A stretch of DNA of 38,925 bases from an uncultured Candidatus Saccharibacteria bacterium (lineage in GTDB: Bacteria > Patescibacteriota > Minisyncoccia > 2-02-FULL-40-12), in NCBI GenBank assembly GCA_964361105.1, contig CAYHZG010000002.1:1-38925 (forward strand), given 5' to 3'. Below are positions 8,718 through 31,606 of this stretch, piece by piece. The notes beneath the pieces were generated by a model. It searched no databases. It had not been told where the DNA came from and saw only the letters and a list, made by a program, of their open reading frames with translations. The position numbers were made by a program, and so were the translations under genes. Within the stretch, counting starts at the first letter, position 1; each line of letters begins with the position of its first letter.

Positions 8718-10205
8718 ATGATTACGGCCCCAAAAGAAACGGACTTGGAAAAAAAACTGAAAGAAATGCGGCGACGAGAGCTTAAAGAAAGGGGTATTGA
8801 ACCAAGACCTCCTGGCCCGTCTTCTCAAGAAAAAACCTCAACCAAAGAAACAAAATTGGGAATAATAAAACTTGAGGCTAGCAAATTAAATCAATTTGAA
8901 AAAGAAATTAAGAATCTGACTGACCTTAAAAATAAATTTTCGAAAATAGCCACTACCGAAATACTCGAAGTCCTTTTCGCCGGGACTTTATCTAGCCGGG
9001 CTTCGGATATCCACTTTGAACCAGAAGAAGAAGGGGTTAGATTAAGACTCAGGATAGATGGCGTCCTTCAGGATATCTTTAATCTTGAGAAAAAGGACTA
9101 CCCCTCAGTTTTAAACCGGATTAAACTAATGGCCGGGCTCAAGATTAATGTCCATGATGCACCCCAAGACGGACGATTTACCTTAAAAACGGAAAAGGCA
9201 ATGGAGACCCGGCTACGCAACGGAGACCCGGCTACGCACGGGTCCCTCTCCAAGCCAGGTCCCTCTCCAAACGATATTGAAGTCAGGGTTTCGGCCTTGC
9301 CCGGAGCTTTTGGCGAGAGCCTTGTGATGCGGCTACTTGACCCGAGAACTATAAAAAGAGGTTTGGAAGAGCTTGGGTTAAGAAAAGACCTTTTGGAAGA
9401 AATTGAAAAACAGCTTAAAAAAACAACTGGAGCAATTTTAACTACCGGCCCAACTGGTTCGGGAAAAACTACTACCCTTTACGCTTTTGTAAATTTCGTC
9501 AATAAACCAGGAGTAAAAATCATAACCATCGAAGACCCGATTGAATACCATATTCAAGGCATATCTCAAACCCAGGTTAAACCGGAAAAGGGCTATAGTT
9601 TCGCTAATGGTTTAAGATCTATAGTCAGACAAGATCCGGACGCGATCCTGATCGGCGAAATCAGGGACTCGGAAACAGCCGAAATAGCCATGCATGCAGC
9701 TTTAACCGGCCACCTCGTCTTTTCTACAATGCATACCAATGATGCCGCCGGAGTAATCCCTCGCCTGATTGATATCGGCACCAAACCTCAGATTATCGCC
9801 CCGGCCATAAATTTAGCCATGGCCCAGAGACTAGTAAGAAAACTCTGTCAGAAATGCAAGAAAAAAGTCAGGGCCACACCTGAAGAATTAAAAAAAATAA
9901 AAGTGGTCTTTAAAAATCTGCCTCAAAAAGTCAAAGAACCAAGAGTGACTGACGAAGTTAAGATTTTTGAAGCAGGAGAATGCAACCAATGCAACTTCAC
10001 CGGCTATCAGGACAGAATCGGCATATTTGAAGCATTTGTAATTGACGAGGAGTTAGAGAAACTTATTCTCAAGTCTCCGGCCATAAGCGAAGTCAGGGAC
10101 TTAGCCATAAAAAAGGGTATGGTTACTTTGATTCAAGATGCTTACTTAAAAATTTTGGAGGGAATAACTGATTTTAAAGAAGTGGAAAGAGTTTTGGGCG
10201 AGTAA
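8718..10205 (+). CDS. pilB: Type II/IV secretion / type IV pilus assembly ATPase (GspE/PilB family)
   Basis: 495 aa with Walker A 'GPTGSGKTTT', an Asp box, Walker B 'ILIGEIRD', a His box 'TGHLVFSTMHTND' and a tetracysteine 'CQKC...CNQC'. It carries a 24-codon GC-rich insertion at 9199-9270. Confidence 0.88.
   Translation: MITAPKETDLEKKLKEMRRRELKERGIEPRPPGPSSQEKTSTKETKLGIIKLEASKLNQFEKEIKNLTDLKNKFSKIATTEILEVLFAGTLSSRASDIHFEPEEEGVRLRLRIDGVLQDIFNLEKKDYPSVLNRIKLMAGLKINVHDAPQDGRFTLKTEKAMETRLRNGDPATHGSLSKPGPSPNDIEVRVSALPGAFGESLVMRLLDPRTIKRGLEELGLRKDLLEEIEKQLKKTTGAILTTGPTGSGKTTTLYAFVNFVNKPGVKIITIEDPIEYHIQGISQTQVKPEKGYSFANGLRSIVRQDPDAILIGEIRDSETAEIAMHAALTGHLVFSTMHTNDAAGVIPRLIDIGTKPQIIAPAINLAMAQRLVRKLCQKCKKKVRATPEELKKIKVVFKNLPQKVKEPRVTDEVKIFEAGECNQCNFTGYQDRIGIFEAFVIDEELEKLILKSPAISEVRDLAIKKGMVTLIQDAYLKILEGITDFKEVERVLGE
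9199..9270 (+). repeat. Second copy of the 72-nt GC-rich palindromic element, in-frame in the PilB-like gene
   Basis: Near-identical to 4939-5010 but read one frame over. Here it encodes METRLRNGDPATHGSLSKPGPSPN; in gpmI it encodes NGDPAPQRRPGFARVPLQAGSLSK. Confidence 0.9.
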
Positions 10206-17234: not shown

Positions 17235-18293
17235 CTAAGAACTGGTAGCTCTGTATTTTGGCGTAACTATTTTATCCATCAATTTAAAAAGTGGGTAAAA
17301 TTTTGAAACCGGAAAATCAAAAGCCCCGAGATAGTTGAATCTTTTGCCATCAAAAGCTCTTTTAAAAAGAGTAAAGCCATGCCAAGGATGGTTTTTATCG
17401 TCTTCGGGTCCAAGCCCCCAAAAGTCAAATGTTTTGACGCCGACTCTCTTTAAGTCCTTTAATATCCCCCAAATATAACCGTAATTGAAAAATTTACTAT
17501 ATTGTTTATGCCTTCCGGTTCCACCCCAGATATAAAAAGCCCTGTCTCCCAAAACAAGGACTATGCCGTAAGCTAAAATAAGGCCTTTGACTTTAGCAAT
17601 ATAAAACCTGACTGCTCCCAATCTGGTCATCTCGTTAAGCAAAAAAATAAACTGTTTGAATGGTCTTAAAGGAAAAGAAAATCTTTTACCGGTTATTCGG
17701 TAAAGGTTATAAAAGCCTTTTAAATCATCTTGGGTGACCTCATCGCTTTTTAAAGTTTCAACTGTTATTAATTCTCTTTCTGAACGATAAATTAAGTTCC
17801 TGGCTGTTCTTCTGAATTTTTTAAGTAGTTCTTCTTCAGAAGGCGTCAAATCAATTAAGAGAGTGGAAGACGGTTGAACGGTCTTAAAATATTCTTTAAA
17901 GTCGCTTTCTTTTAAAACCCTAACCAACTCCTCATTTTCTTCAACTGGCGGCTCCAAACGCAAAAAAAGAGTTTTAGGGTCTTTTAATTTTTCTATAAAA
18001 AAAACTTTAAGGGCGCTGATTACTTCTTTGACTAATTCCGGGTTTCCCCAGTCGGTTACTGGGCCTCTTGGAATATAGAACAGAGAAAATCCAAGAGGCA
18101 GCCTTCTTTTTAGCAATTGGGCTACCCCCTTTAATTCTCCTTCTTTTAAAAAACCAATTCTCTGGCTTTCCCAGTTGAATTTAGATTTAATCTCTCCCCA
18201 TTCCCAAGATTGAAGAATGTCTTTATATTTTGAACTGAGCAGGAAATCATTGTATTTTTTTCTGTCGTTTTCATTAAAAATAATTAAATCCAT
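17235..18293 (-). CDS. FemAB-family peptidoglycan interpeptide-bridge aminoacyltransferase
   Basis: 'ILQSWEWGEIKSKFNWESQRIGF' and 'LFYIPRGPV' are typical of the FemX/FemAB family. Start set at the second ATGGAT (18293), because the 24 upstream codons are the repeat element. Confidence 0.85.
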   Translation of the reverse strand: MDLIIFNENDRKKYNDFLLSSKYKDILQSWEWGEIKSKFNWESQRIGFLKEGELKGVAQLLKRRLPLGFSLFYIPRGPVTDWGNPELVKEVISALKVFFIEKLKDPKTLFLRLEPPVEENEELVRVLKESDFKEYFKTVQPSSTLLIDLTPSEEELLKKFRRTARNLIYRSERELITVETLKSDEVTQDDLKGFYNLYRITGKRFSFPLRPFKQFIFLLNEMTRLGAVRFYIAKVKGLILAYGIVLVLGDRAFYIWGGTGRHKQYSKFFNYGYIWGILKDLKRVGVKTFDFWGLGPEDDKNHPWHGFTLFKRAFDGKRFNYLGAFDFPVSKFYPLFKLMDKIVTPKYRATSS

Positions 18294-18359
18294 CCCATTA
18301 GAAATCCGACTCGCCTTTGGCGAGTCGGCAAAAATCTCTGATTTTTTATTTCTAACGGG
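18294..18359 (-). repeat. 66-nt TIR element between the dnaN stop and the FemAB start
   Basis: 65/66 identical to 23349-23414 in the opposite orientation. Arms are CCCGTTAGAAAT and ATTTCTAATGGG. Internal hairpin CCGACTCGCC-AAAG-GCGAGTCGG at 18306-18328. ATGGAT flanks both sides. Confidence 0.9.
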
Positions 18360-18364
18360 ATCCA

Positions 18365-19465
18365 TTATGTTTTTAGGGGCATAATCAAATAAGTAAAATT
18401 TAGGTCTTGATCTTTTGGTCTTAAAGTTATTGGCGCCCCTTCGCCAGCGTATTCAAAAACAATATCTTCAGAAGAGATATTCTTTAGGCCGTCTACCAGA
18501 TAATTATAGTTTAGCAAAACTTCAAATGGTTCATTAATTTGAATATTGGGATTATTTTTGACTCTCGAGTTAAACTCGCCTCGGTCAGAATTTTTAGAAA
18601 ACACGACCGCCTCTTTTTTGTCAATCCTCAAACCGATGTCGTTTATATTGCTTGAAAACAGTCCGGCTAATCTTATGTTATTTTGAAGGTCTTCTTTTTT
18701 GAATAAAACCTGGGAAACTGATTTTGTGGGGATAACTTTTTGATAATCTGGATACCGGCCCTCAACCAAACGGGAAATAATTTCAAAATCATCTGAAGAA
18801 AACTGAATCTGATTTTCCTCTATGCTGATTAAAGTATCTTTTTCATAGTCAGAAAAGATTCTTATTAGCTCGGCCACAGTATTTCTTGGAATTATTACCG
18901 AGATTTGTTTGTTGCAATTTATGTCGATTATTTTTTCAGTCAGACGGAAACTATCAGTAGAAGCAAGATAAATTTTCGTTTTATTAAAACTAATAAAAAC
19001 ACCACCGAGTTCTGGTCTGGTTTGGGAAACAGAAATTGAATCAAATACAGAAGCCAAGGCGTTTTTTAAAACCCGACTCGGTAAGGTGACCACCGGATCC
19101 TTTTTTAATTTAGGAATTAGTGGGAAATCTTTAGGGTCGAGGCAAATAAATTTTGTCTTAAAATTAATACTTTGAATATTTAAAATATTATCCTTTAAAA
19201 GGAGCTCTATTTTGTCATCTTTGATATTAGAAACAAAATCGGAAAATATTTTTGCCGGTATGGCTACCTTACCTTCATTCTCGGTGGTAGCTTTAAGATA
19301 GTAATTTATTCCCAATTCTAAATTAGTAGTTGAAAGATTGACTTGATTATTTTTAAAAGTCATTAAAATAGCATTTAAAACCGGCAGGTTTAGATTTTTA
19401 CCGACAATATTTTTAACCGTGTTTAAACCTTGCTGAAGATTTCTAGTTATTATTGTAATTTTCAT
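18365..19465 (-). CDS. dnaN: DNA polymerase III beta sliding clamp
   Basis: 366 aa with a three-domain beta-clamp pattern, directly downstream of dnaA. Confidence 0.9.
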   Translation of the reverse strand: MKITIITRNLQQGLNTVKNIVGKNLNLPVLNAILMTFKNNQVNLSTTNLELGINYYLKATTENEGKVAIPAKIFSDFVSNIKDDKIELLLKDNILNIQSINFKTKFICLDPKDFPLIPKLKKDPVVTLPSRVLKNALASVFDSISVSQTRPELGGVFISFNKTKIYLASTDSFRLTEKIIDINCNKQISVIIPRNTVAELIRIFSDYEKDTLISIEENQIQFSSDDFEIISRLVEGRYPDYQKVIPTKSVSQVLFKKEDLQNNIRLAGLFSSNINDIGLRIDKKEAVVFSKNSDRGEFNSRVKNNPNIQINEPFEVLLNYNYLVDGLKNISSEDIVFEYAGEGAPITLRPKDQDLNFTYLIMPLKT

Positions 19466-19680
19466 AATATAAATTTAATAAAGATAATAATAAGCTTTGT
19501 GGAAAAGTAATTAAATCAAATGTTTATCCATATAATACCTAAATAAATCTATTTTAATTACTAATTGATAAACTATTGATAATTTTGTTATAAGGTCTTA
19601 AGTTTTAAACTTATTTTAAAACTTTCAAGTTTAAATCTTCAAAATAACAAACTCAAATCAACATATCTATCTACAACTTG
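19466..19680. promoter_or_regulatory. AT-rich dnaA-dnaN intergenic region with DnaA-box-like 9-mers
   Basis: TGTGGAAAA (19498-19506) and TTATCCATA (19524-19532) are each one mismatch from TGTGGATAA/TTATCCACA. The spacer is extremely AT-rich. Confidence 0.5.
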
Positions 19681-21051
19681 TCAGGCCTTATTATAAATCC
19701 TTTCCCTGATTAAATTTATTTCTTGTTTCATATTTTCATTATTTTCCACTTCTTCAACAATTTTCCGATAGGCATGAATCACTGTTGAGTGATCTTTTCC
19801 TCCCAAACGACTACCAATATCCGGAAAAGATGCCTTAGTATCTTCCCTTAAAAGATACATTGCAATCTGGCGTGGCTTGACTAAAAATGTTTTCCTGCTC
19901 TTTTTAAGAAGTTCATTTAAAGTAAGGCCATAAAAATCGCAAACAACTTTTACTATTGCCTGGGCGTTTGTTTTTCGGTAACTGGCCTGGACATAGGCCT
20001 TTAAGAGTTTTTCTACTTCTTTTGGAGTTGGCTCTCGGCCGGTCAAGTCGCTTACCGCAATAATTCTATTTAAAGCACCTTCAAGCTCTCTTATATTTTT
20101 CTGAATATTAGTAGCGATGCATTCTAAGACTTCGTCTGGCAAAGAGATCGGCTTATTCTTTACCTTTGTTTTCAGAATAGCCAGACGAGTTTCATAATCA
20201 GGAATATTAATGTCAGCGATCATTCCTCCTTCAAATCTCGATTTTAACCTTTCTTCAATGGCCGACAAGGCCTTTGGCGGCCGGTCGGAAGATAGAATAA
20301 TCTGTTTATTCCGGTTATATAAATTATTAAAAGTGGCGAAAAATATGTTTTGAGTAGTTTCCTTGGCCGCCAAAAACTGAATATCATCAACGATTAAGAC
20401 GTCTCTTTGGGCATATTTTGTTTTAACTTCTTCTATGGTTTTGTTCTTTATTCCTTCAATGAGTTCAGAAACCATTTTTTCAGCCGGCAAGTAGATGATT
20501 TTCTTATCGGGATTATCCTTTAATATTTTATTGGCAATGCCTTGAAGTAAATGAGTTTTACCTAAACCCACTCCTCCATAAATAAAAAGAGGGTTATAAA
20601 TCTTGCCCAAGCTTTTAACTACAGCCATACTGGCCGCATAGGCCAGTTCATTACTTGGGCCAACAACAAAACCATCAAGAGTGTACTTTCTGTTCAGGTT
20701 TGTTTTGGGGTCAATGTCGGTGTCTGAGTTTATTTCTTGGATTTGTTCAAGCTGTATCTCCCTGGTTAGAATCTTTGAGTCCGATGTTTTTACAAAAGGG
20801 TTACCAACAACGTAATTAATTTCTCTAATATCGTTATCGGCCTGCTTTAAGCATTGAAAAATCACTTTATTAAATTTATTTTGGATCCATTCTTTAACAA
20901 AGCCATTAGGAACACTGATTACAACCTGTCCATTTTCTTTGGAAATAATTTTAGTGTCTTTAAACCAGGTAACAAAGCTGGCTTTGCTCAAAGACATCTC
21001 CATTTCACCCAAAACACCTTTCCAAATATCTTCATTAGTTAGAGTGGTCAT
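19681..21051 (-). CDS. dnaA: Chromosomal replication initiator DnaA
   Basis: 456 aa with Walker A 'GGVGLGKTHLL', 'LIVDDIQFL' and a C-terminal DNA-binding domain ('GGKDHSTVIHAYRKI'). Confidence 0.95.
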   Translation of the reverse strand: MTTLTNEDIWKGVLGEMEMSLSKASFVTWFKDTKIISKENGQVVISVPNGFVKEWIQNKFNKVIFQCLKQADNDIREINYVVGNPFVKTSDSKILTREIQLEQIQEINSDTDIDPKTNLNRKYTLDGFVVGPSNELAYAASMAVVKSLGKIYNPLFIYGGVGLGKTHLLQGIANKILKDNPDKKIIYLPAEKMVSELIEGIKNKTIEEVKTKYAQRDVLIVDDIQFLAAKETTQNIFFATFNNLYNRNKQIILSSDRPPKALSAIEERLKSRFEGGMIADINIPDYETRLAILKTKVKNKPISLPDEVLECIATNIQKNIRELEGALNRIIAVSDLTGREPTPKEVEKLLKAYVQASYRKTNAQAIVKVVCDFYGLTLNELLKKSRKTFLVKPRQIAMYLLREDTKASFPDIGSRLGGKDHSTVIHAYRKIVEEVENNENMKQEINLIRERIYNKA

Positions 21052-21204
21052 GTTTTTTCTTAATTCTATTTTATAGATACGTCGATTAACAATTTATTTA
21101 AGTTGAGAATTTGTTGATAATAAGTTGATTAGCATAATTATTATATTCTCGATTGTCAAACCTAACAATTGACCAGTTTTAAGAAAAAGGTTAATTTAAA
21201 AAGC
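21052..21204. promoter_or_regulatory. Candidate oriC / divergent promoter region between dnaA and rpmH
   Basis: AT-rich spacer between divergently oriented dnaA and rpmH. TGTTGATAA (21112-21120) is one mismatch from a DnaA box. Gene orientation switches here. Confidence 0.5.
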
Positions 21205-21351
21205 ATGACCAGAGCAAAAGCATTAACCTTTCATCCATCAAAAAAGAAAAAAGCAAGAAAGCACGGGTTTAGAAAAAGAATCGAGACCCAGGCTGGAAAA
21301 AAAGTTTTACTGAGAAGAAGAAGAAAGGGCAGAAAAAGAATAATCCCCTAG
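21205..21351 (+). CDS. rpmH: 50S ribosomal protein L34
   Basis: '[39 protein letters not shown]'. ATG 21205 gives the usual length of about 48 aa; the track start TTG 21169 is probably too long. Confidence 0.9.
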
Positions 21352-21358
21352 GTTAAAG

Positions 21359-21694
21359 ATGTCTTTACCAAGAAAATATTGTTTGTCCAGCAAATCTGAG
21401 ATTGAAGGAGTTTTTAAAAAGGGAAAGTATCTGAACTCTGAGTTGTTTTCCATAAAATTTTCCCCAAATAGTACTAATTTCAGCAGATTGGCAGTAATCG
21501 TCGGCAAAAAGAGCTCAAAGAAATCGGTTTTAAGGAATAGAATCAAAAGATTGGTGAGTGAAATTATACGGTTGAATTACTCAAGGATTAAACCCGGTTA
21601 TAATATCGTTTTAATAGTTAAATCTCGGGCCATAAATGAGGAATACAGAGATTTAAAAGAAGCTTTAGTTAAAAGATTGAGTGAAATTGGCTAA
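21359..21694 (+). CDS. rnpA: Ribonuclease P protein component
   Basis: 111-aa basic protein in the conserved position after rpmH, containing 'NRIKRLVSEIIR'. Confidence 0.88.
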   Translation: MSLPRKYCLSSKSEIEGVFKKGKYLNSELFSIKFSPNSTNFSRLAVIVGKKSSKKSVLRNRIKRLVSEIIRLNYSRIKPGYNIVLIVKSRAINEEYRDLKEALVKRLSEIG

Positions 21695-21921
21695 TGAAAA
21701 CGTTAACTATTGGTCTGATAAAACTATATCAAAGTACTTTTTCGCCTAATCACGGCCTTGAATTTTTTGGTTTTTTGACCGGTTGCCGGTTTTACCCTTC
21801 CTGTTCCGAGTATTCAATTCAGGCGATAAATAAGCACGGCCTGATAAGGGGCCTTTTTAAATCAATCGTAAGGATTTTAAAGTGCAATCCATGGTCAAGA
21901 GGCGGAGTTGATTTACCATGA
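21694..21921 (+). CDS. yidD: Membrane protein insertion efficiency factor YidD
   Basis: 75 aa with 'CRFYPSCSEYSIQAINKHG' and 'LKCNPWSRGGVD'. TGA stop at 21919-21921. Confidence 0.92.
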   Translation: MKTLTIGLIKLYQSTFSPNHGLEFFGFLTGCRFYPSCSEYSIQAINKHGLIRGLFKSIVRILKCNPWSRGGVDLP

Positions 21922-22063
21922 CCCAGTAGTAGAAATTCGGCAGGTTTTTAGCCATGTCGTTGTAATCTACTGGGAGCAGATTAATAATAATTTTTGTTAA
22001 TTTTTGGCAATATCTAGTTTTATAAAACCAAACTAAGACATATGCCGAATTTTCACTACTGGG
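21922..22063 (-). mobile_element. 142-bp ORF-less (MITE-like) derivative of the GIY-YIG cassette, inserted in the yidD/yidC ATGA junction
   Basis: TIRs CCCAGTAGTAGAAATTCGGCA (21922-21942) and TGCCGAATTTTCACTACTGGG (22043-22063) are 19/21 complementary. They have the same two end variants (GTAGTAGAAATTCG and GTAGTGAAAATTCG) as 1440-1753, but inverted. Direct ATGA at 21918-21921 and 22064-22067. Confidence 0.75.
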
Positions 22064-22858
22064 ATGACTGGATTATTTAACTCAATTTTATACATTCCGT
22101 TTTTCAATCTTCTTGTTTTTTTGTATAACACCGTTGCTTTTCACGATTTTGGCTTGGCCATAATCTTACTGACTCTGGTTATTAGGTTAGTTCTTAGCCC
22201 CTTGTCTATTAAGACATTTAAATCACAAAAGATTTTAAGCGAGCTTCAACCAAAGATTAAAGAAATTCAAGAGAAATTCAAAAATGATCCTCAAAAACAA
22301 ACCCAGCAGATTATGGAAACATATAAACAGTACAAGGCCAACCCGTTTTCGGGATGCCTGCCCTTATTAATTCAACTCCCGATTTTAATAGCTCTTTACC
22401 AGGTCTCACTCGCTGGTTTTGAAAAAAATTCACTCTCGGCTTTATACAGCTTTGTTAAGAATCCCGAGTTTTTAAATCAGACATCTTTAGGGTTTATTGA
22501 TTTGACTAAAAGAAGTGTTTTTCTTTCGGTATTTGCCGGCGTTAGTCAATTTTTACAAACTAAGCTAAGCCTCAATTTCCAGAAGAATCCCGCCCTTCAA
22601 AAATCTCCCAAAACGACAGCGATTCCGCAACGAGCCGTAAGCGGCTCGGCGGAACCTTCGACGAGCAATCCCATCGCTTCAATGAACCAACAAATGTTGT
22701 ATTTTTTGCCCATTATCACTATAATTATTTCGATGAGTTTTCCAGCTGGTCTGCCGCTTTATTGGATAGCCACAACTTTGTTTTCGGTTCTAGAACAGGT
22801 ATACATTAATAAGACATATGCAAAACCAAATCGAAAACCTGATTTCTCAAACCGTTAA
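22064..22858 (+). CDS. yidC: Membrane protein insertase YidC (short, Gram-positive-like form)
   Basis: 264 aa with 'GCLPLLIQLPILIALY' and 'PAGLPLYWIATTLFSVLEQ'. Confidence 0.92.
   Translation: MTGLFNSILYIPFFNLLVFLYNTVAFHDFGLAIILLTLVIRLVLSPLSIKTFKSQKILSELQPKIKEIQEKFKNDPQKQTQQIMETYKQYKANPFSGCLPLLIQLPILIALYQVSLAGFEKNSLSALYSFVKNPEFLNQTSLGFIDLTKRSVFLSVFAGVSQFLQTKLSLNFQKNPALQKSPKTTAIPQRAVSGSAEPSTSNPIASMNQQMLYFLPIITIIISMSFPAGLPLYWIATTLFSVLEQVYINKTYAKPNRKPDFSNR
22623..22654. repeat. GC-rich hairpin inside the yidC coding sequence
   Basis: TTCCGC-aa-CGAGCCG-TAAG-CGGCTCG-GCGGAA forms a 13-bp interrupted stem. It encodes part of the hydrophilic stretch 'IPQRAVSGSAEPS'. Confidence 0.7.
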
Positions 22859-23291
22859 AGACCTTTTTCAAAGAGCCGGTTTTAATTTCAATGATTTGAA
22901 TATAGAAAAAAATGGGGATGGGCAAGAAGAGGCATTTATAGTCAAAATCCAGTCGGACGATGATTGTTCTCTGTTACTGAGTGACAAAGGCAGGAGTTTG
23001 AGAGCTTTTGAGTATATTGCTAGAATTCTGGCTGTAAAAGAGTCAAACCAGAAAATCAGTTTGATTATTGATCTAAATAATTTTTTAGAGAAGAGAAACA
23101 GCCGAATCTCCGAATTAGCCAGACTAGTAGCTAAAAAGGTCCAAACTACCCAAAAGTCATTTGCTTTAAGGCCAATGTCAGCCTATGAAAGGCGTTTAGT
23201 TCATCTCGAACTGGCTACTTGGCCAGACATTAGAACTGAAAGCATTGGCGAAGAACCAAAACGACGAGTAGTAATAAAACCAGGTCAATAA
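22818..23291 (+). CDS. Jag/KhpB-type RNA-binding protein (KH + R3H)
   Basis: 157 aa in the conserved position after yidC, with R3H motif 'SAYERRLVHLELA'. Confidence 0.85.
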   Translation: MQNQIENLISQTVKDLFQRAGFNFNDLNIEKNGDGQEEAFIVKIQSDDDCSLLLSDKGRSLRAFEYIARILAVKESNQKISLIIDLNNFLEKRNSRISELARLVAKKVQTTQKSFALRPMSAYERRLVHLELATWPDIRTESIGEEPKRRVVIKPGQ

Positions 23292-23348
23292 TCAGATATT
23301 AGGTTATCAGTACTTAGGGTAAAAGGAAAACCCTATTTTTTTATGGAT

Positions 23349-23414
23349 CCCGTTAGAAATAAAAAATCAGAGATTTTTGCCGACTCGCCAGAGGCGAGTC
23401 GGATTTCTAATGGG
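23349..23414 (+). repeat. 66-nt TIR element abutting the flippase start codon
   Basis: Arms CCCGTTAGAAAT (23349-23360) and ATTTCTAATGGG (23403-23414). Hairpin CCGACTCGCC-AGAG-GCGAGTCGG at 23380-23402. Flanked by ATGGAT at 23343-23348 and 23415-23420. Confidence 0.9.
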
Positions 23415-24833
23415 ATGGATTTGCATAGAATCTACAAAAACTTTTTCATTGCCTCTGTTTCTCGATTGTTTACGGCCGTGGTGGGCTTGATTATCATTGG
23501 ATTTTTAACCAGGCATCTCGGGCAAATAGGGTATGGCATTTATGAGACCATCCTTTCCTACCTTTTCATTTTCACAATTTTGGCTGATTTTGGTCTCCAC
23601 ATAGTTCATGTCCGAGAAATTTCTCGCCATCCCGAAAAAGAAGAGTTTATTTCCGGAAATATTTTTACCCTTAGATTTATTTCCCTAATTTTAGTAATAA
23701 TTTTAGCGGTTATTGTCGGTTCATTTTTGCCCTATTCAGCAGAAACTAAGACCGGGATCTTGATTGCCACGATTTTTGTCCTTTTTTCATCCTTAAGTCA
23801 AATTTTATCCGGTATTTTTCAAAAGTATCACACTTTTTACTTGGTTTCTTTCTCGGATATATTGACTCGACTGATTCAGTTGGGTCTGGTTTTTTATGCA
23901 ATAAAGGCAGGTTTTGGTCTTTTGGCTTTTGTTTGGATACTTTCCATAACTAGCGGTCTTCAATTTGCAATAGTTTTCTTTTTATCGCGTCGTTTCATTA
24001 AGTTTCCTTTTACTTTTGATTTTTCTTACGCCAGAGAGGTCCTAAAAGTCTCTTTGCCGGTGGCCGCCTCAATCCTATTTACGGCAATTTATATCAGAAC
24101 CGATGCCTTAATGCTTTCTTTAATGAAACCAGCTTCTGATGTTGGAATTTACCGTTTGGCGGCCAAGCTACTGGAAACGATTGTGTTTTTCCCGGCCCTC
24201 CTCGTAGAACTGACCATGCCCTCATTTTCCAGTTTTGCCTTTGAGGCGAGACACGTTTTTAAAATTATTTTCATAAAGATATTTAATATTTTATTTATTT
24301 TGGCAGTACCAGTAGTTGTTTTTCTGACTGTTTTGTCCCATTCGATTGTCTTAATCCTTGGTGGGCAGGAGTTTTTAAGTTCGGCCCTGCCCTTAAAGAT
24401 CCTGGCATTCGTGGTTGGCCTGGTCTTTTTAAATAACCTCGGAGGCAGGGCCTTGATTGCTTTGGAACTTCAAAGGACTGGGATGTGGATTTATATTTCT
24501 GGCGCAGTTTTAAATATTGTGGCTAACTTATTGGTTATTCCCAAATACTCTTATATTGGCGCTTCTTTTACCACTTTAATAACCGAAATTGTGGTCACGA
24601 TTATGATGTTTTTGATTATTTATCAAAAGACCGGTTTTACTGCTGAAATGAAAAGGATCTATAAGCCCATTTTGGCCGGCTTAATCATGGCCTTAGTTAT
24701 TTATAAATTTAAAGAATTTAATATTTTAGTTCCCTTTTTCTTGGGACTAGCGGTCTACTCCTTAGTCCTTTATTTTATTGGCGGTTTCACCAAAAAGAAT
24801 ATAGAAGAAATTCTAAATTTTAAGGGAGTATAA
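23415..24833 (+). CDS. Oligosaccharide/lipid-linked precursor flippase (MOP superfamily, Wzx/MurJ-like)
   Basis: About 472-aa polytopic protein with roughly 12-14 hydrophobic segments and the typical N-terminal 'SRLFTAVVGLIIIGFLTRHLG'. Start set at the second ATGGAT. Confidence 0.8.
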   Translation: MDLHRIYKNFFIASVSRLFTAVVGLIIIGFLTRHLGQIGYGIYETILSYLFIFTILADFGLHIVHVREISRHPEKEEFISGNIFTLRFISLILVIILAVIVGSFLPYSAETKTGILIATIFVLFSSLSQILSGIFQKYHTFYLVSFSDILTRLIQLGLVFYAIKAGFGLLAFVWILSITSGLQFAIVFFLSRRFIKFPFTFDFSYAREVLKVSLPVAASILFTAIYIRTDALMLSLMKPASDVGIYRLAAKLLETIVFFPALLVELTMPSFSSFAFEARHVFKIIFIKIFNILFILAVPVVVFLTVLSHSIVLILGGQEFLSSALPLKILAFVVGLVFLNNLGGRALIALELQRTGMWIYISGAVLNIVANLLVIPKYSYIGASFTTLITEIVVTIMMFLIIYQKTGFTAEMKRIYKPILAGLIMALVIYKFKEFNILVPFFLGLAVYSLVLYFIGGFTKKNIEEILNFKGV

Positions 24834-25610
24834 CTTTTTGTCTTTGGTATTCACGAATATTAAATAATCCTTCAGGGGACTTAGTTTTAGGTTAGTCGTT
24901 TCAAGTCCTAGATTTTTCAGAATGCTCGTTTCCCCAGAATCTTTTTCAGGTATTTTTTGAAATTCTTTTCCGTCGGGAGTTATTGAAAATGCCGCCGAGG
25001 GGTCTCTTATCGGGTATAAAATGATTAGATTTGTTTCTGACCAGGCGAGTTTTAGGTCTTTAATCCGTGTCTTAAAAATGGTTATTGGATCAATCCCGAT
25101 GGGATTGGCTGTTAAAATATTTACCCAGTCACTTTCTTTATCGTAGGTATAGTAAACAACTCTCTGGCCATCAGCCGAGAAAACAATATTCTCCGCATTT
25201 TTCGGCAGTTCCACCCGCCTATTTTCTCTCAGATTAAAATAAAAATTTTTTAAAATACCCTTTTCTGATACGGCCGCTATAAGTTCTTCTCCGTTGGGGC
25301 TAAAGCTCATTTTTAAAACATTGCTAATTCGGGCCAGTTCTCTTTTGTTTTTTGCGTCAAAACCAACCTCATAAATTATTGAATCAGTTTCTTCGTAATA
25401 GAGGACTCTATCAGAACCATCTTTTAAGTTAAGAAAGTCAACCGGTCCCCTACTTATTTTTACTGGTAAATTTTTTAAAGCATCTGATTTGATATTAAGT
25501 TTAGACCGTTGGTCTTTTTCCAGTTTTTGGAAATTTAAGACCAAAAGCGAAACCATGACCCCGCTTAAAACAAAAATCAGAATAATCAGGTTTTTTCTAA
25601 TGTCAGTCAT
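24813..25610 (-). CDS. Membrane-anchored protein with TolB-like (PD40) beta-propeller repeats
   Basis: N-terminal TM segment 'LIILIFVLSGVMVSLLVL', then repeated 'FSPNGEELIA', 'FSADGQRVVYY' and 'ITPDGKEF' motifs. Last gene of the T4SS-like array. Confidence 0.6.
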   Translation of the reverse strand: MTDIRKNLIILIFVLSGVMVSLLVLNFQKLEKDQRSKLNIKSDALKNLPVKISRGPVDFLNLKDGSDRVLYYEETDSIIYEVGFDAKNKRELARISNVLKMSFSPNGEELIAAVSEKGILKNFYFNLRENRRVELPKNAENIVFSADGQRVVYYTYDKESDWVNILTANPIGIDPITIFKTRIKDLKLAWSETNLIILYPIRDPSAAFSITPDGKEFQKIPEKDSGETSILKNLGLETTNLKLSPLKDYLIFVNTKDKKLYSLKI

Positions 25611-25618
25611 TCTTGTAG

Positions 25619-26221
25619 TTATGCTGCTAGGAGTTCACGTCTTGCTTCTATTTCGTATTGAACCATTTGATTCTCGGCTGCTAAAGCCAGTCGGGCGTTT
25701 TCCATTGCTTCTTCGTAAGTTCTTTTTTCATCTTTGTAAGTTGAATAAATTGCCCAGGTTCTCCAAGGGACAAAATCGATATAAGCTACAATATCAACCG
25801 CCATAGCGGCAATATTTTTAAAAACAGGATTACGGATTATTCCAAGTCGTGCCCTTCTTATGGTCAGAGCAACTCTTCTGACCGATCTTCTCAAGCCAGG
25901 TATACGCCTCGCCACCCTCAAAGCTCCAGCATAAATTCTTCTGATTTGAATTAACCGTCTTTCCATTCTTTCAATGTGGAGATGGATTCCATCAACTACC
26001 TCTCTCATTTTTTTAATTCTTGAATTAGCGCTCCAGCCACCAATAAAGAGAATCGGCGCCACGATAATATCAACGATTACACTAACCACTATACCTATTC
26101 CAGTAAGGCCAGCAATTATATCCACCCCATCAGCCACAAAAGCAATAAAGCCAAAGAAAAAATATTTCAGTTTTGAAGGCGGATTAAGCTCTTGAATTAT
26201 TTGTTGAGCAGGGGATGGCAT
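25619..26221 (-). CDS. Hypothetical membrane protein with an Arg-rich amphipathic C-terminal half
   Basis: 200 aa with two or three N-terminal TM segments ('YFFFGFIAFVADGVDIIAGLTGIGIVVSVIVDIIVAPILFIGGW'). It starts 1 nt after the VirB4 stop. Confidence 0.6.
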   Translation of the reverse strand: MPSPAQQIIQELNPPSKLKYFFFGFIAFVADGVDIIAGLTGIGIVVSVIVDIIVAPILFIGGWSANSRIKKMREVVDGIHLHIERMERRLIQIRRIYAGALRVARRIPGLRRSVRRVALTIRRARLGIIRNPVFKNIAAMAVDIVAYIDFVPWRTWAIYSTYKDEKRTYEEAMENARLALAAENQMVQYEIEARRELLAA

Positions 26222-26222
26222 A

Positions 26223-28025
26223 TCACTTATTATTACTCCCTTTTTCTCTTAGCCATTCTTTTTTTGCTTCCCGAATTTCTAAAATCTGTCTTGGGTCAGA
26301 AGTAATAATTTGGTCCTCGGCGTAAGAAGCCACTACTCTAACCGCAACATGATTAGCTCCGGCAAAAAACAAACCGTGACCCACCCTTGTGCCAAGTAAG
26401 GCGATTTTTTCCGCCTCGGTCAGGTTAAATGTTTCTTTGACTGTTTCGATTGCCGCCGGACTCTGCTTCATTAAAAGCTGCAAAGCGGCGTTAGTAACAA
26501 TCGGTTTGCCATAAGGTGAGTTAATGAAATCGGGTACATCTTGGGAGATAGTGGTTAGACCGAGAAAATATTTCCTTGCTCTTTTTGCCGTATTTAATAA
26601 AAAGTTTGCCCCGGCTTCGTTTTTCAAAAGCCACCAGGCCTCATCAACCACCAGAATTCTTTTCCTTAGTTCTTTTCTCACTTTTGCCCAGAGGAAATTT
26701 AAAACCAAGTACATGGCGATTGGCTTTAATTCATCTTCCATGTCGCGAATAGAAAAAACAACTAATTGGTTATCCAAAACAACATTGGTCGGCTGGTTTA
26801 AAAAGCCGGCAAAAGTTCCTTCAGTGTATTTTTTAATCCTGATAAGTAATGATTCGGCTCCGGTCATGCCCTCCAGAACATTTCTGAAATCGCTCATTAG
26901 CGGCGGTTCCTTATTGGAAAAATCACGGTCTGGATAAATGTCTTTAATGGCATAAGTTTGAATCAGGGCTTCGTCCAGGACCGATTCTTCTTCTGGAGAA
27001 AGCTGGCCGAGCATTACTTTCATCAAGCCGGTCAAATCTAAGATATGGCTCCGGAAGACATCGCTTGTACGCTCGTCTTCACGAGGAGCGGGTAAGTCAA
27101 ACGGATTAAGATGGCTATCAGAAGCGATTGATATTTTTATGAAAGAACCGCCCAAGGTTTCGGCGACGTGCTTGTATTCATGCTCTGGGTCAATCACGAA
27201 AATTTGATTTCCGAAAAGAATGGAGCGTAAAATTTCCAGTTTTACGGCATAGCTTTTTCCGCCGCCACTAGTTCCAAAAACAACTTGATTAGCATTTTCC
27301 AAACTGAATCGGTCAAATAAAATGAGGGAATTATTATGCAGGTTTATGCCGTAAAGAATCCCCTGGTCTTGAGTCAGGTCATAAGAAACAAATGGAAAGC
27401 TTGAGGAAATCGGTTCAGTGTTCAAAGGAGAGTTAATTCCCAATTCGTCCTTGCCAAGCGGTAAAGCAGTCGTAAACCCTTCCTTCATTCTGAAAGTCGC
27501 CGGTTTGACCACGACTAATTGCGACTCCAAATTGTTTCTTATTCTTTTTTCAATTTCATCCAGTTCTTTCAGATCTTTGCCTAAAATGGTCAGATAAAGG
27601 CCGAATCTGAAAAACCGGTCGGTCCCAAGCTGGAGCTTGTCTCTTAAGGTTTCAATGTCTGAAATAGCGGTTTCCAAAACCGGGTCTCGGACCTTGCCTT
27701 TTTCTTGTTCCTCAATTGCCTGGGCCTGGAGCCGAGCCAGCCGGTCCCTTAATTTTCTTAAGATATTAGCTGTGTCTTCGGGATGAATGTAAAAAGAGAT
27801 ATTCAGTTCTTGGTCAAGGTTGATTATTGGAGAAAACCAACTTGAATTCAGATAGCGGGGATAAGAAGAAATAAATAAAGTCCGAGTGAACTTTTCACTG
27901 ATTTGAAGATAGTTTGAAGAAACATTTACCGCCGAAGGAGCCAGAATTTCGTCTATTTTTTGTCCCCTGCCCTCCGTAGCTTCAGCGAAGGAGGGTTCTT
28001 TTAATTTTCTTTTAAACAAAGCCAT
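26223..28025 (-). CDS. virB4: VirB4/TrsE/ConE-type T4SS ATPase, middle and ATPase portions
   Basis: 600 aa with Walker A 'GTSGGGKSY' and Walker B 'ILVVDEAWWLL'. The pre-ATPase block 'LAPSAVNVSSNYLQISEKFTRTLFISSYPRYLNSSWFSPIINL' is typical of Gram-positive VirB4 homologues. Confidence 0.8.
   Translation of the reverse strand: MALFKRKLKEPSFAEATEGRGQKIDEILAPSAVNVSSNYLQISEKFTRTLFISSYPRYLNSSWFSPIINLDQELNISFYIHPEDTANILRKLRDRLARLQAQAIEEQEKGKVRDPVLETAISDIETLRDKLQLGTDRFFRFGLYLTILGKDLKELDEIEKRIRNNLESQLVVVKPATFRMKEGFTTALPLGKDELGINSPLNTEPISSSFPFVSYDLTQDQGILYGINLHNNSLILFDRFSLENANQVVFGTSGGGKSYAVKLEILRSILFGNQIFVIDPEHEYKHVAETLGGSFIKISIASDSHLNPFDLPAPREDERTSDVFRSHILDLTGLMKVMLGQLSPEEESVLDEALIQTYAIKDIYPDRDFSNKEPPLMSDFRNVLEGMTGAESLLIRIKKYTEGTFAGFLNQPTNVVLDNQLVVFSIRDMEDELKPIAMYLVLNFLWAKVRKELRKRILVVDEAWWLLKNEAGANFLLNTAKRARKYFLGLTTISQDVPDFINSPYGKPIVTNAALQLLMKQSPAAIETVKETFNLTEAEKIALLGTRVGHGLFFAGANHVAVRVVASYAEDQIITSDPRQILEIREAKKEWLREKGSNNK
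27964..27996. repeat. GC-rich palindrome in codons 11-22 of the VirB4 ATPase ORF
   Basis: Stem CCCTCC (27970-27975) pairs with GGAGGG (27990-27995). It encodes 'PSFAEATEGRGQ'. It shares CCTCCTTCGCTRAARCT and GGGCAGG with the tRNA spacer element at 2386-2448. Confidence 0.6.
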
Positions 28026-28657
28026 TATTGTAGTTTCATTATCCCTTCAACCGCCTCTGGATTATAAAATCGGTAGTAAAGATTGATTAATTCATCTTCT
28101 TCTAAAACTTTGGCTCCGAGGCCTAATCCGGCCAAATTTTCATAGACCAAATTAACCCTTTGGTTTAATTGGGCCTTATATGAACTAAATTCTTCAGGAG
28201 TTAGTTTTTTAATCGTTTCAGATGGTTTGAAAATGCTTTTGAATATTTCTTTGACCCCTCCTTTAGTTCGGGGACCGATATAGAAGGGGATAATCACAAA
28301 AAAATCCTTAGCCATAATATTGGCTAATTGGGTCAGTTCTTTTACAAACTTTGAATATTCAACGGCCTGAATTCTCATCAATTCGTTCTGTTGGTTTTCG
28401 ATCAACTCATCAATCATAGCTAGATAGCTATTAATGTTTAGTTTTCGTGACATCACCATAATTTCCAAAGAAAAATCCAAAGCATTCAGGAAATCCCGAA
28501 AGCCCTGCAAAATCGCCGTTTGTTCATCCTGGGACTTTAGTTCAAAGTTAATTGAACCGATTCGAATCACCTGGCGCAAAGAGCCGTCTTTTAAAATCAA
28601 AACCTCGTCTCTGACTTCTTGAATTTCAACAAATTGTTTAGTTGATACCTCGGCCAT
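28025..28657 (-). CDS. Protein resembling the detached N-terminal domain of Gram-positive VirB4
   Basis: 210 aa. 'LILKDGSLRQVIRIGSINFELKSQDEQTAILQGFRDFLNALDFSLEIMV' follows the pattern I recall for the N-terminus of Tn916 Orf16/ConE-type VirB4. TAATG overlaps at both ends. Confidence 0.6.
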   Translation of the reverse strand: MAEVSTKQFVEIQEVRDEVLILKDGSLRQVIRIGSINFELKSQDEQTAILQGFRDFLNALDFSLEIMVMSRKLNINSYLAMIDELIENQQNELMRIQAVEYSKFVKELTQLANIMAKDFFVIIPFYIGPRTKGGVKEIFKSIFKPSETIKKLTPEEFSSYKAQLNQRVNLVYENLAGLGLGAKVLEEDELINLYYRFYNPEAVEGIMKLQ

Positions 28658-28950
28658 TAAAAGTTTTGATTGTCTTCTTTTTTGAAAAAGTATTTTTTTG
28701 GGCCAAGGGCATATCCCAACGCCTTCATTAGATATTCTATTAAACTCATCTCTTCTATTCTAAGAAAGGCCAGGGAGCCAAAAATGGCGATTACAATAAT
28801 TGAAACAAAAATTAGAAAGGGTCCGGTCAAGAATCTGAAAAGTATTAAAAGCAGACCCACGCCCATAGCCACCCAGATGAATTGTTTCCAGGTCAAGGGC
28901 CCGACTATTTTGGTTTCTGTTTCAATGAATTGAGGCACCTGGAATTTCAT
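28657..28950 (-). CDS. PrgI/VirB3-like small two-TM T4SS protein
   Basis: 97 aa. 'FQVPQFIETETKIVGPLTWKQFIWV' is followed by two TM helices and sits immediately upstream of the VirB4 ORFs. Confidence 0.65.
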   Translation of the reverse strand: MKFQVPQFIETETKIVGPLTWKQFIWVAMGVGLLLILFRFLTGPFLIFVSIIVIAIFGSLAFLRIEEMSLIEYLMKALGYALGPKKYFFKKEDNQNF

Positions 28951-29453
28951 AGTATATTTCTTAAATCAATAATGCTTTCGTCTTCAGTTGGGGGCTGGAT
29001 AGATGGTTGCGGACTCGGTTTACTTTTTACTTCTTGTTCTTTTGTTGCACCAGCAAATTTTTCAGTATGCATTTTTTTCAAGTCATCCAGAATCGGTGCA
29101 AAAAGTTCAATAACAATTAGTCCGGCAATGGTTTTAGCTTTTTGTTCATCAATACCCAATCTGTCTTTTATTGCATTAACCACGTTGCCAAGATAGAGAT
29201 CGGCAAATAATAGATCTTTGACAACTCTAGCCAATTCTTCACCCCTTTTTTCATCTAAACTATTATCGGTAATAACCCTTTTAATAAATTTAGCTGTCTC
29301 AAAATCACCAAGAAAGAGATCTTTTATATTTGGCGGCAAGTTGTTTAACTTTTCAAAAAACCCTTTATATTTAAAAGTTCCAGTTGTTCTATCACTGGAA
29401 TCAACGTAATAAGGACTATAAAGATGGTATTCTTCAAAGCTTAATTCAGACAT
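28947..29453 (-). CDS. Hypothetical soluble protein with a Pro/Ser/Gln-rich tail
   Basis: 168-aa ORF coupled to the next gene by an ATGA overlap. I recognise no motif. Confidence 0.55.
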   Translation of the reverse strand: MSELSFEEYHLYSPYYVDSSDRTTGTFKYKGFFEKLNNLPPNIKDLFLGDFETAKFIKRVITDNSLDEKRGEELARVVKDLLFADLYLGNVVNAIKDRLGIDEQKAKTIAGLIVIELFAPILDDLKKMHTEKFAGATKEQEVKSKPSPQPSIQPPTEDESIIDLRNIL

Positions 29454-29458
29454 GATGG

Positions 29459-31573: not shown

Positions 31574-31606
31574 AGTTTGTAATACTGGCTAAACATTTTT
31601 AAGTGA

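Follow-up and report, generated by a model that had tools for sequence, protein, structure and literature searches.

A 36-nt imperfect hairpin within unrelated genes of Patescibacteria, a candidate miniature mobile element that keeps the host reading frame

Results

Two genes of a Saccharibacteria contig carry the same GC-rich repeat

The window analyzed here, a 38,925-bp stretch of DNA from an uncultured Candidatus Saccharibacteria bacterium (contig CAYHZG010000002.1; 39% GC), contains two copies of a 72-nt GC-rich repeat, each located within a protein-coding gene. One copy lies in gpmI (4625-6241, + strand), which encodes the cofactor-independent phosphoglycerate mutase (iPGM) and is recognized by the Pfam domains Metalloenzyme and iPGM_N and by its match to PDB entry 1ejj (E = 6.7e-108). 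The other lies in a gene for a PilB/GspE-family ATPase (T2SSE; 8718-10205, + strand), assigned by Pfam PF00437 (E = 1.5e-109) and by PilB in the PDB (E = 7.5e-86). The copies were first placed at 4939-5010 and 9199-9270 and agree at 69 of 72 positions, with a chance expectation of 0. Their GC content is 65-68%, compared with 39% for the genome, and local GC reaches 0.53-0.61 at the copies against roughly 0.3-0.4 in the surroundings. An initial annotation, made from these letters alone, had observed that the repeat is read in different frames in the two genes and that its length is divisible by 3; both points are correct, as are the translations it quoted, NGDPAPQRRPGFARVPLQAGSLSK in gpmI and METRLRNGDPATHGSLSKPGPSPN in the ATPase, whose frames differ by one.

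Because the same DNA is read in up to three frames and from both strands, a conserved peptide motif or protein domain was rejected as an explanation; a terminator reading was rejected as well. At the gathering score, Rfam returned only four tRNAs, and a search at E <= 10 gave sub-threshold noise only. A CRISPR repeat or other known RNA family was therefore rejected: the best Rfam match, CRISPR-DR20, scored 16.8 bits against a gathering score of 42 bits, and there is no array. A viral contig scan and BLAST searches of plasmids and phages yielded no match for the element.

Empty sites define the insert boundaries

The ends of the ATPase insert were placed by comparison with an empty site on contig L034, which comes, like the window, from the Hainich H51 groundwater sample and is syntenic with it (tig-nusA-pilB). 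L034 reads AAG ACA|GAT ATT where the window reads AAG GCA|[72 nt]|GAT ATT, and BLAST breakpoints fall at 9200|9273. The repeat is indeed present at the originally annotated 9199-9270, but the L034 site shows that the insert proper is 9201-9272 (+ strand). It falls between codons (phase 0), corresponds to residues 162-185, and is accompanied by no target-site duplication in this comparison. The closest ATPase homolog (P0002; 85% amino acid identity), encoded on this contig, is 471 residues long, which equals the 495 residues of the window protein minus 24. Close homologs of the ATPase leave the insert columns empty in 102 of 103 cases, and PilB/GspE chains of the PDB likewise lack residues here, in agreement with the earlier description of an element splitting ...DGRFTLKTEKA / DIEVRVSALPG.... 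In a HMMER-based structure alignment, query residues 157/185 pair with 281/286 of 6olj, so that the break occurs exactly at the element. In an AlphaFold model of the ATPase (104 sequences; mean pLDDT 87.9), strands 150-156 and 187-196 form a beta-hairpin with the insert at its tip, and pLDDT falls below 50 at residues 169-178. The statement in the initial annotation that this is a short turn in GspE/PilB proteins holds.

The insert in gpmI (4941-5012, + strand) begins at codon position 2, if its ends are set by register with the ATPase copy. Query residues 105/130 pair with 107/109 of the 1ejj chain, and the insert is absent from that structure, from other iPGM structures and from all 139 representative iPGM homologs. 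On L040, a syntenic and more distant relative, gpmI is uninterrupted at the insert site, and the element was not found anywhere in the syntenic relatives L038-L040.

A second verified empty site is provided by a PBP2 gene that carries the element in another genome. The insert is absent from 120 of 120 best homologs (58-82% identity), which read GTAKILGTL|PVKAGAKTGT where the filled allele reads ...GTL[TETRLGTGPSPR]PVK.... Comparison with the DNA of an empty site (P0121) gives an insert of exactly 36 nt, again with no target-site duplication. Presence and absence of the element vary between strains that are 81-88% identical within one sample.

The 72-nt insert is one hairpin unit nested within another

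The initial annotation treated the 72-mer as one element and missed its composite structure. The arrangement is A-A-A'-A', a 36-nt imperfect hairpin unit inside the loop of a second 36-nt unit. In the ATPase copy (all parts on the + strand), the left arm of the outer unit occupies 9201-9219 (19 nt, ATGGAGACCCGGCTACGCA) and its right arm 9256-9272 (17 nt, CAGGTCCCTCTCCAAAC). Between them, at 9220-9255, lies a complete inner unit (ACGGAGACCCGGCTACGCACGGGTCCCTCTCCAAGC), positioned inside the outer loop between GCA and C(A/G)GG. Joining 9201-9219 to 9256-9272 rebuilds one 36-nt unit, and the 30-nt core of the inner unit is found at 9222-9251 with 0 mismatches. The gpmI copy has the same parts on the same strand (outer left arm 4941-4959, inner unit 4960-4995, outer right arm 4996-5012).

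The unit consensus is 5'-AY GGAGACCCGGCT NN GCACGGGTCCCTCTCC NNNN-3', that is, 5'-AY followed by the core GGAGACCCGGCTNNGCACGGGTCCCTCTCC and four variable nucleotides (2+30+4), a size verified at the PBP2 empty site. GGA/GACCCG in the stem pairs with CGGGTC/TCC, leaving a 4-nt bulge and a variable loop. The single unit is predicted to fold as a bulged stem-loop of -15 to -16 kcal/mol, and the 72-mer RNA folds at -31.5 to -43 kcal/mol (z -1.9 to -4.9). A third nested copy was found in fmt on L026, with the outer arms shortened to CCCGGCTTCGCA...CGGG. Since the nested copies in the ATPase, gpmI and fmt genes carry different loop variants, nesting has probably recurred. L026 itself, a 21.9-kb Hainich H51 contig, has copies of the core at 6391-6420 and 9486-9515, 3.1 kb apart; cysS holds a single unit and fmt the nested one.

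The unit occurs in unrelated genes of other Patescibacteria

One pattern scan each was made of genome and metagenome collections. The pattern needed 20 exact bases, so decayed copies are largely invisible to it. Single 30-nt cores were found in low-GC (33-47%) Patescibacteria contigs from Hainich ENA assemblies, five JGI metagenomes and NCBI metagenome-assembled genomes, including two Candidatus Yanofskybacteria; the other 16 genome matches were high-GC and were set aside as chance matches. After removal of duplicates, and with the two copies of the window included, 15 independent sites remained, 14 of them inside long open reading frames (ORFs) and one intergenic. The genic copies comprise 10 in sense and 4 in antisense orientation. 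Single units account for 12 further sites outside the window, 11 inside ORFs in both orientations plus the intergenic one, and the nested fmt copy is additional to these. The intergenic copy (L022) has a 1-nt deletion, whereas the length of every genic copy is divisible by 3.

Besides gpmI and pilB, the host genes encode a type IV secretion system coupling protein, RelA/SpoT, a PMT_2 glycosyltransferase, a DUF11 protein, IF-1 (infA), Fmt, CysS, PBP2, a DUF5671 protein, a Na/Ca exchanger and the product of one ORF without a family; one more host ORF was named HPF-like (hpf-like) by eye and not by Pfam. These hosts are mutually unrelated and mostly housekeeping genes. Within them the element lies mostly in inter-domain linkers, tails and loops, at no common position relative to gene starts or ends, and each contig of 10-180 kb has 0-2 copies. 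Far from being restricted to two loci or disrupting its hosts, the element is thus present in many unrelated genes and in other genomes, with the ORFs intact. The proposal of the initial annotation that the repeat can reside in coding DNA without truncating the host protein holds across this set, in which a fixed length of 36 or 72 nt keeps the frame; both orientations are seen, and the distribution between coding and intergenic DNA is the 14 to 1 given above.

The flanks offer hints of a target preference. Position -2 is C at 13 of 15 sites, with no single tetranucleotide, and each of the targets in pilB, gpmI and the element's own loop ends in (G/A)CA. As a separate observation, three copies in unrelated genes (L024, 5398-5427, - strand; L031, 6335-6364, + strand; L013, 1717-1746, + strand) all have GCCG as the 5' flank, and the L024 and L031 units additionally share the 3' flank AGGAACA. 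The trio may form a subfamily in which the mobile unit is longer, or may reflect a stricter target.

These distributions bear on two alternative origins of the repeat. Short GC-rich palindromes can arise as chimeras, which raises the question of an assembly, adapter or amplification artefact. We give this almost no credence, given that the element appears in independent assemblies and projects (Hainich ENA, several JGI metagenomes, NCBI metagenome-assembled genomes), that an independent record of the window contig is 100% identical, and that the element within long ORFs is always in frame. Alternatively, the palindrome could have formed locally, by template switching or hairpin-primed duplication, and spread by gene conversion with no dedicated mobility system. 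Replication slippage on a hairpin could in principle produce an A-A-A'-A' architecture, and the two copies of the window are 4.3 kb apart on the same strand. Against such an origin, unrelated genes from different species and projects hold identical units, two empty sites show exact ends and an unvarying block length, and the flanks share no homology that would support gene conversion. On balance a local origin appears quite improbable.

Reading frames are used with a strong bias

The repeat at 9199-9270 had initially been described as free of stop codons in all six frames. This is true of the gpmI copy but not of the ATPase copy, which has TAG in two of three reverse frames because its two loops read GCTACGC. 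Nor is openness of this kind notable for the base composition: after shuffling, the 36-nt unit is open in six frames in 22-24% of cases and the 72-mer, which is the unit twice, in 2-3%. The further suggestion that an element open in every frame could be inserted in any phase fails on two counts, as the A-loop variants carry a reverse TAG and the use of frames is biased. All seven independent single sense units are read in one frame, giving (T/M)ETRL(R/G)TGPS, and all four antisense units are likewise read in one frame, giving GEGPV(R/H)SRVS(V/I). Other sense frames occur in the three nested copies only. By our own calculation, the chance of one frame throughout is ~3 x (1/3)^7 for the sense units and ~3 x (1/3)^4 for the antisense units. 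A rule that insertion always occurs between codons fails to explain this, because the preferred sense and antisense frames differ in DNA phase. The antisense A-loop copies are read in the frame that avoids their TAG.

Genic copies are 36 or 72 nt long without exception, and none has a stop in the frame used. The constant length, the lack of in-frame stops and the TAG-avoiding frame together suggest that the insert is translated, in which case the filled genes would yield junction peptides such as ...TEKAMETRLR..., NGDPATHGSLSK and LGTLTETRLGTGPSPRPVK. A different outcome would be that the ribosome skips the element, by bypassing of the byp or T4 gene 60 type, or that the element is excised from the mRNA. 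A very stable GC-rich hairpin in AT-rich coding sequence does resemble the mitochondrial byp elements, reportedly bypassed in this manner, and the RNA fold z-scores point in the same direction. Neither skipping nor excision would account for genic copies that are all 36 or 72 nt and stop-free in the used frame, with TAG-bearing reverse strands read in the frame that avoids the stop. The frame bias, moreover, implies that the peptide or the codons matter, and Rfam gave no ribozyme or intron match, its best score being the sub-threshold one reported above. We therefore consider skipping or excision very improbable.

The core is conserved at the nucleotide level

Across ~150 kb of loci the 30-nt core shows 0 mismatches outside two loop positions, with the exception of L022 and of L030/L032. 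In L030/L032, G3>C and C32>G occur together and keep the base pair, a compensatory change in the stem. Over 1.4 kb the PBP2 orthologs of L027 and L033 share 75-79% identity, and yet the element and a few flanking bases are identical at 47 of 47 positions; no other 36-nt stretch in this 1.4 kb reaches 35/36. These PBP2 copies share a loop variant, CTAGGCA, seen in no other copy. Because both contigs come from one sample, the identical tract could be a recent recombination patch within one aquifer.

Such conservation raises the main rival to a mobile element, namely that the hairpin is a selected cis-acting DNA or RNA signal (protein-binding, nicking, recombination or mRNA-processing) that purifying selection on its nucleotide sequence would maintain and that the reading frame need only tolerate. 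The core is invariant except in the loop across species of 33-47% GC, the PBP2 orthologs hold their 47/47 island, one stem change is compensatory, and the copies are few per contig with none decayed. Other features argue against selection for a signal. Close strains differ in whether one and the same gene carries the element, syntenic relatives lack it, and it is dispensable in close relatives; its hosts are unrelated, and it has no shared position relative to gene ends. The occurrence of both orientations argues against an mRNA signal, though not against a DNA signal. Moreover, a search pattern of 20 exact bases finds well-preserved copies only, and the PBP2 tract could be the recombination patch already mentioned. 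We regard a selected signal as unlikely overall, although it could be combined with a mobile origin, as the signal may be a domesticated mobile hairpin. A related proposal, that the hairpin is a signal conserved at the nucleotide level inside coding sequence across Patescibacteria, either as the recognition hairpin of a single-strand DNA enzyme or as a DNA signal used by the host, seems to us slightly more doubtful still. If the hairpin were recognized by such an enzyme, it would be, at 36 nt, the smallest active peel-and-paste element and would have hairpin loops as its targets; if it were a conserved signal, the rule of one frame per orientation would reflect a real coupling between element and translation.

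Other features of the window and its relatives

A different hairpin repeat was noted in a PilB homolog (P0015) on L037, a Hainich H51_R2 contig. This repeat, ATTGGACCGATAAAACCGATGAGTCCAATTGGCCCGA, has 37 identical nucleotides and arms ATTGGAC/GTCCAAT, and it occurs twice in one pilB, at residues 168-177 and 395-404, where it is read as WTDKTDESNWPD. One of the copies lies in exactly the same beta-hairpin turn as the insert in the window ATPase. These groundwater Patescibacteria thus seem to host several families of in-frame hairpin inserts.

The window also contains a second, unrelated structured repeat of 80 nt, at 18286-18365 (- strand) and 23343-23422 (+ strand), with 79 of 80 positions identical. 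In two unrelated ORFs, one FemAB-like and the other a Polysacc_synt/MurJ-like flippase, it supplies codons 1-26 (MDPVRNKKSEIFADSP[K/E]ASRISNGMD). Its RNA is predicted to fold into two hairpins closed by a long stem (-39 to -41 kcal/mol; z -6.7 and -7.5). ATGGAT is found at both ends of this repeat, so the true start codon may be the second ATG. The 80-nt repeat was not found in the 36 loci compared.

Between these 80-nt copies, at 18368-23288, lies the presumed replication origin region, where dnaN and dnaA (- strand) are followed by rnpA, yidC and a jag-like R3H gene (+ strand). No clear switch of GC skew was seen at dnaA along the window. Both 72-nt hairpin inserts are 12-16 kb to one side of this presumed origin and in the same orientation. 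Four tRNA genes are clustered at 2154-2519 (- strand). Large ORFs without Pfam matches surround a VirB4/TraG-like ATPase gene (26226-28025) at 24816-34262 (- strand), a run that is probably a type IV secretion or conjugation-like module. Just after a cysteine desulfurase-like gene, a 95-amino acid ORF with a stand-alone GIY-YIG nuclease domain is found at ~1447-1734 (+ strand), annotated on the identical contig L035 at 2450-2737.

Discussion

The interpretation that we favor, with moderate confidence, is that the 36-nt unit is a miniature mobile or selfish DNA, non-autonomous and of the REP/RPE type, that circulates in groundwater Patescibacteria. Precise inserts of fixed length, the lack of duplication, polymorphism between strains, identical units in unrelated genes and species, occurrence in both orientations and insertion into its own loop all speak for a mobile hairpin. 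We propose that the element would insert as a fixed 36-nt block without duplicating its target, mobilized in trans by a hairpin-recognizing single-strand HUH/Y1 enzyme, perhaps RAYT-like, and that insertion into the single-stranded loop of an existing copy would generate the nested 72-mer. The lack of duplication and the hairpin architecture fit an HUH/Y1 enzyme (IS200/IS605 or RAYT-like) better than they fit MITEs of the DDE type. Both lengths, 36 and 72, are divisible by 3 and so leave the host frame unchanged, and the element would be translated as a hydrophilic loop of 12 or 24 residues. Selection may then retain only those insertions that fall in tolerant linkers, turns and tails and in the least harmful frame. 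Patescibacteria (the Candidate Phyla Radiation, CPR) have tiny genomes with almost no intergenic space; a selfish hairpin can therefore only go into genes.

Several points weigh against a mobile hairpin. A Pfam scan of 30 window ORFs and the annotation of the relatives L034-L044 revealed no transposase or HUH gene, and no direct insertion or excision event was seen. Copy density is low, with no extra or decayed copy (up to 7 or 8 mismatches) in the ~150 kb of loci and 103 kb of relatives. Frame use of 7/7 and 4/4 is not what random insertion predicts. The 47/47 identity of the PBP2 copies also counts on this side, since drift would be expected in a neutral, dead insertion. Taken together, the frame bias and the nucleotide-level conservation hint that the element may be more than neutral.

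Whatever its mode of spread, the presence of this element means that essential proteins (PilB, GpmI, CysS, Fmt, IF-1, PBP2 and RelA/SpoT) carry inserts of 12-24 residues that are of non-protein origin, which affects the annotation and structure modeling of CPR proteins. Presence and absence among co-occurring strains also make it a strain-level marker.

Among known systems, the closest in habit are the Rickettsia palindromic elements (RPEs). In the summaries given by two later papers (PMC10969869, PMC3733652) of the work of Ogata et al. (2000, 2002), RPEs are palindromes lying in frame in housekeeping genes, where their translation adds peptide segments that the protein fold is presumed to accommodate, and no transposase is known for them. 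In-frame palindromes of 20-40 bp and of ~150 bp are both documented in other systems (PMC3733652; PMC10969869). Like RPEs, the element described here sits in frame in unrelated genes of a small-genome bacterium and is absent from orthologs, as the pilB and PBP2 empty sites show. Unlike RPE-1, which is ~100-150 bp, the unit is 36 nt, and it belongs to another phylum and has another sequence. It further differs in its near-invariant core across species, low copy density, self-loop nesting and one dominant frame per orientation.

The REPs tagged by GTAG/CGTC (20-40 bp), which include RPE-4 and RPE-6 of R. conorii and those of Opitutus terrae, are found inside ORFs as singles or dimers and add ~10-30 residues (PMC3733652). 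The 36-nt unit agrees with them in being an imperfect palindrome of 20-40 bp that forms a stem-loop, but it lacks a consistent GTAG/CGTC terminal tag. Its 5' end is AC or AT followed by GGAG; GACG, the complement of CGTC, arises only where the flanking base is G (4/15 sites), and GTAG only inside the loop of A-loop variants. REPs are also mainly extragenic and high-copy, whereas this element is intragenic at nearly all of its sites and low-copy, and the two units of its doublet are nested (A A A' A'), not placed head-to-head or tail-to-tail. For REPINs, movement by RAYTs and insertion into existing REPINs have been proposed (PMC3116915), and the proposed action of HUH tyrosine transposases on single-strand REP hairpins leaves no target-site duplication (PMC3733652, PMC3116915). 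The present system differs in that no RAYT was found among the 30 window ORFs or the annotated loci L034-L044. It differs from DDE-derived MITEs in the lack of a target-site duplication at either verified empty site (pilB, PBP2). Single-strand elements of the IS200/IS605 type (PATE-like) leave no target-site duplication and insert 3' of a short conserved target; the present element shows no duplication, and its left flank has C at -2 at 13 of 15 sites but no single tetranucleotide.

Cyanobacterial small dispersed repeats (SDRs) are reportedly hairpins of ~21-27 nt, nested and sometimes intragenic, that have been proposed to be mobile. By this description they resemble the element as tiny nested hairpin repeats, some of them in genes, and differ from it in sequence, size and phylum; SDRs are numerous per genome, while the element is sparse but crosses species. 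The GC-cluster and byp elements of yeast mitochondria are also GC-rich hairpins in AT-rich coding sequence. The byp elements are bypassed in translation, and the frame need not be kept; the present element differs from byp and from gene 60 in that it keeps the frame and brings neither a broken frame nor in-frame stops.

Our literature searches turned up no paper containing the core sequence and none of relevance on palindromes in Patescibacteria genes. The element is thus a new family of a known element type, in a phylum for which we found no earlier report. As a minimal system of 36 nt, with exact ends, no duplication and targeting of its own loop, it offers a setting in which to look for the enzyme that moves REP/RPE-like palindromes, RPEs and CGTC REPs among them.

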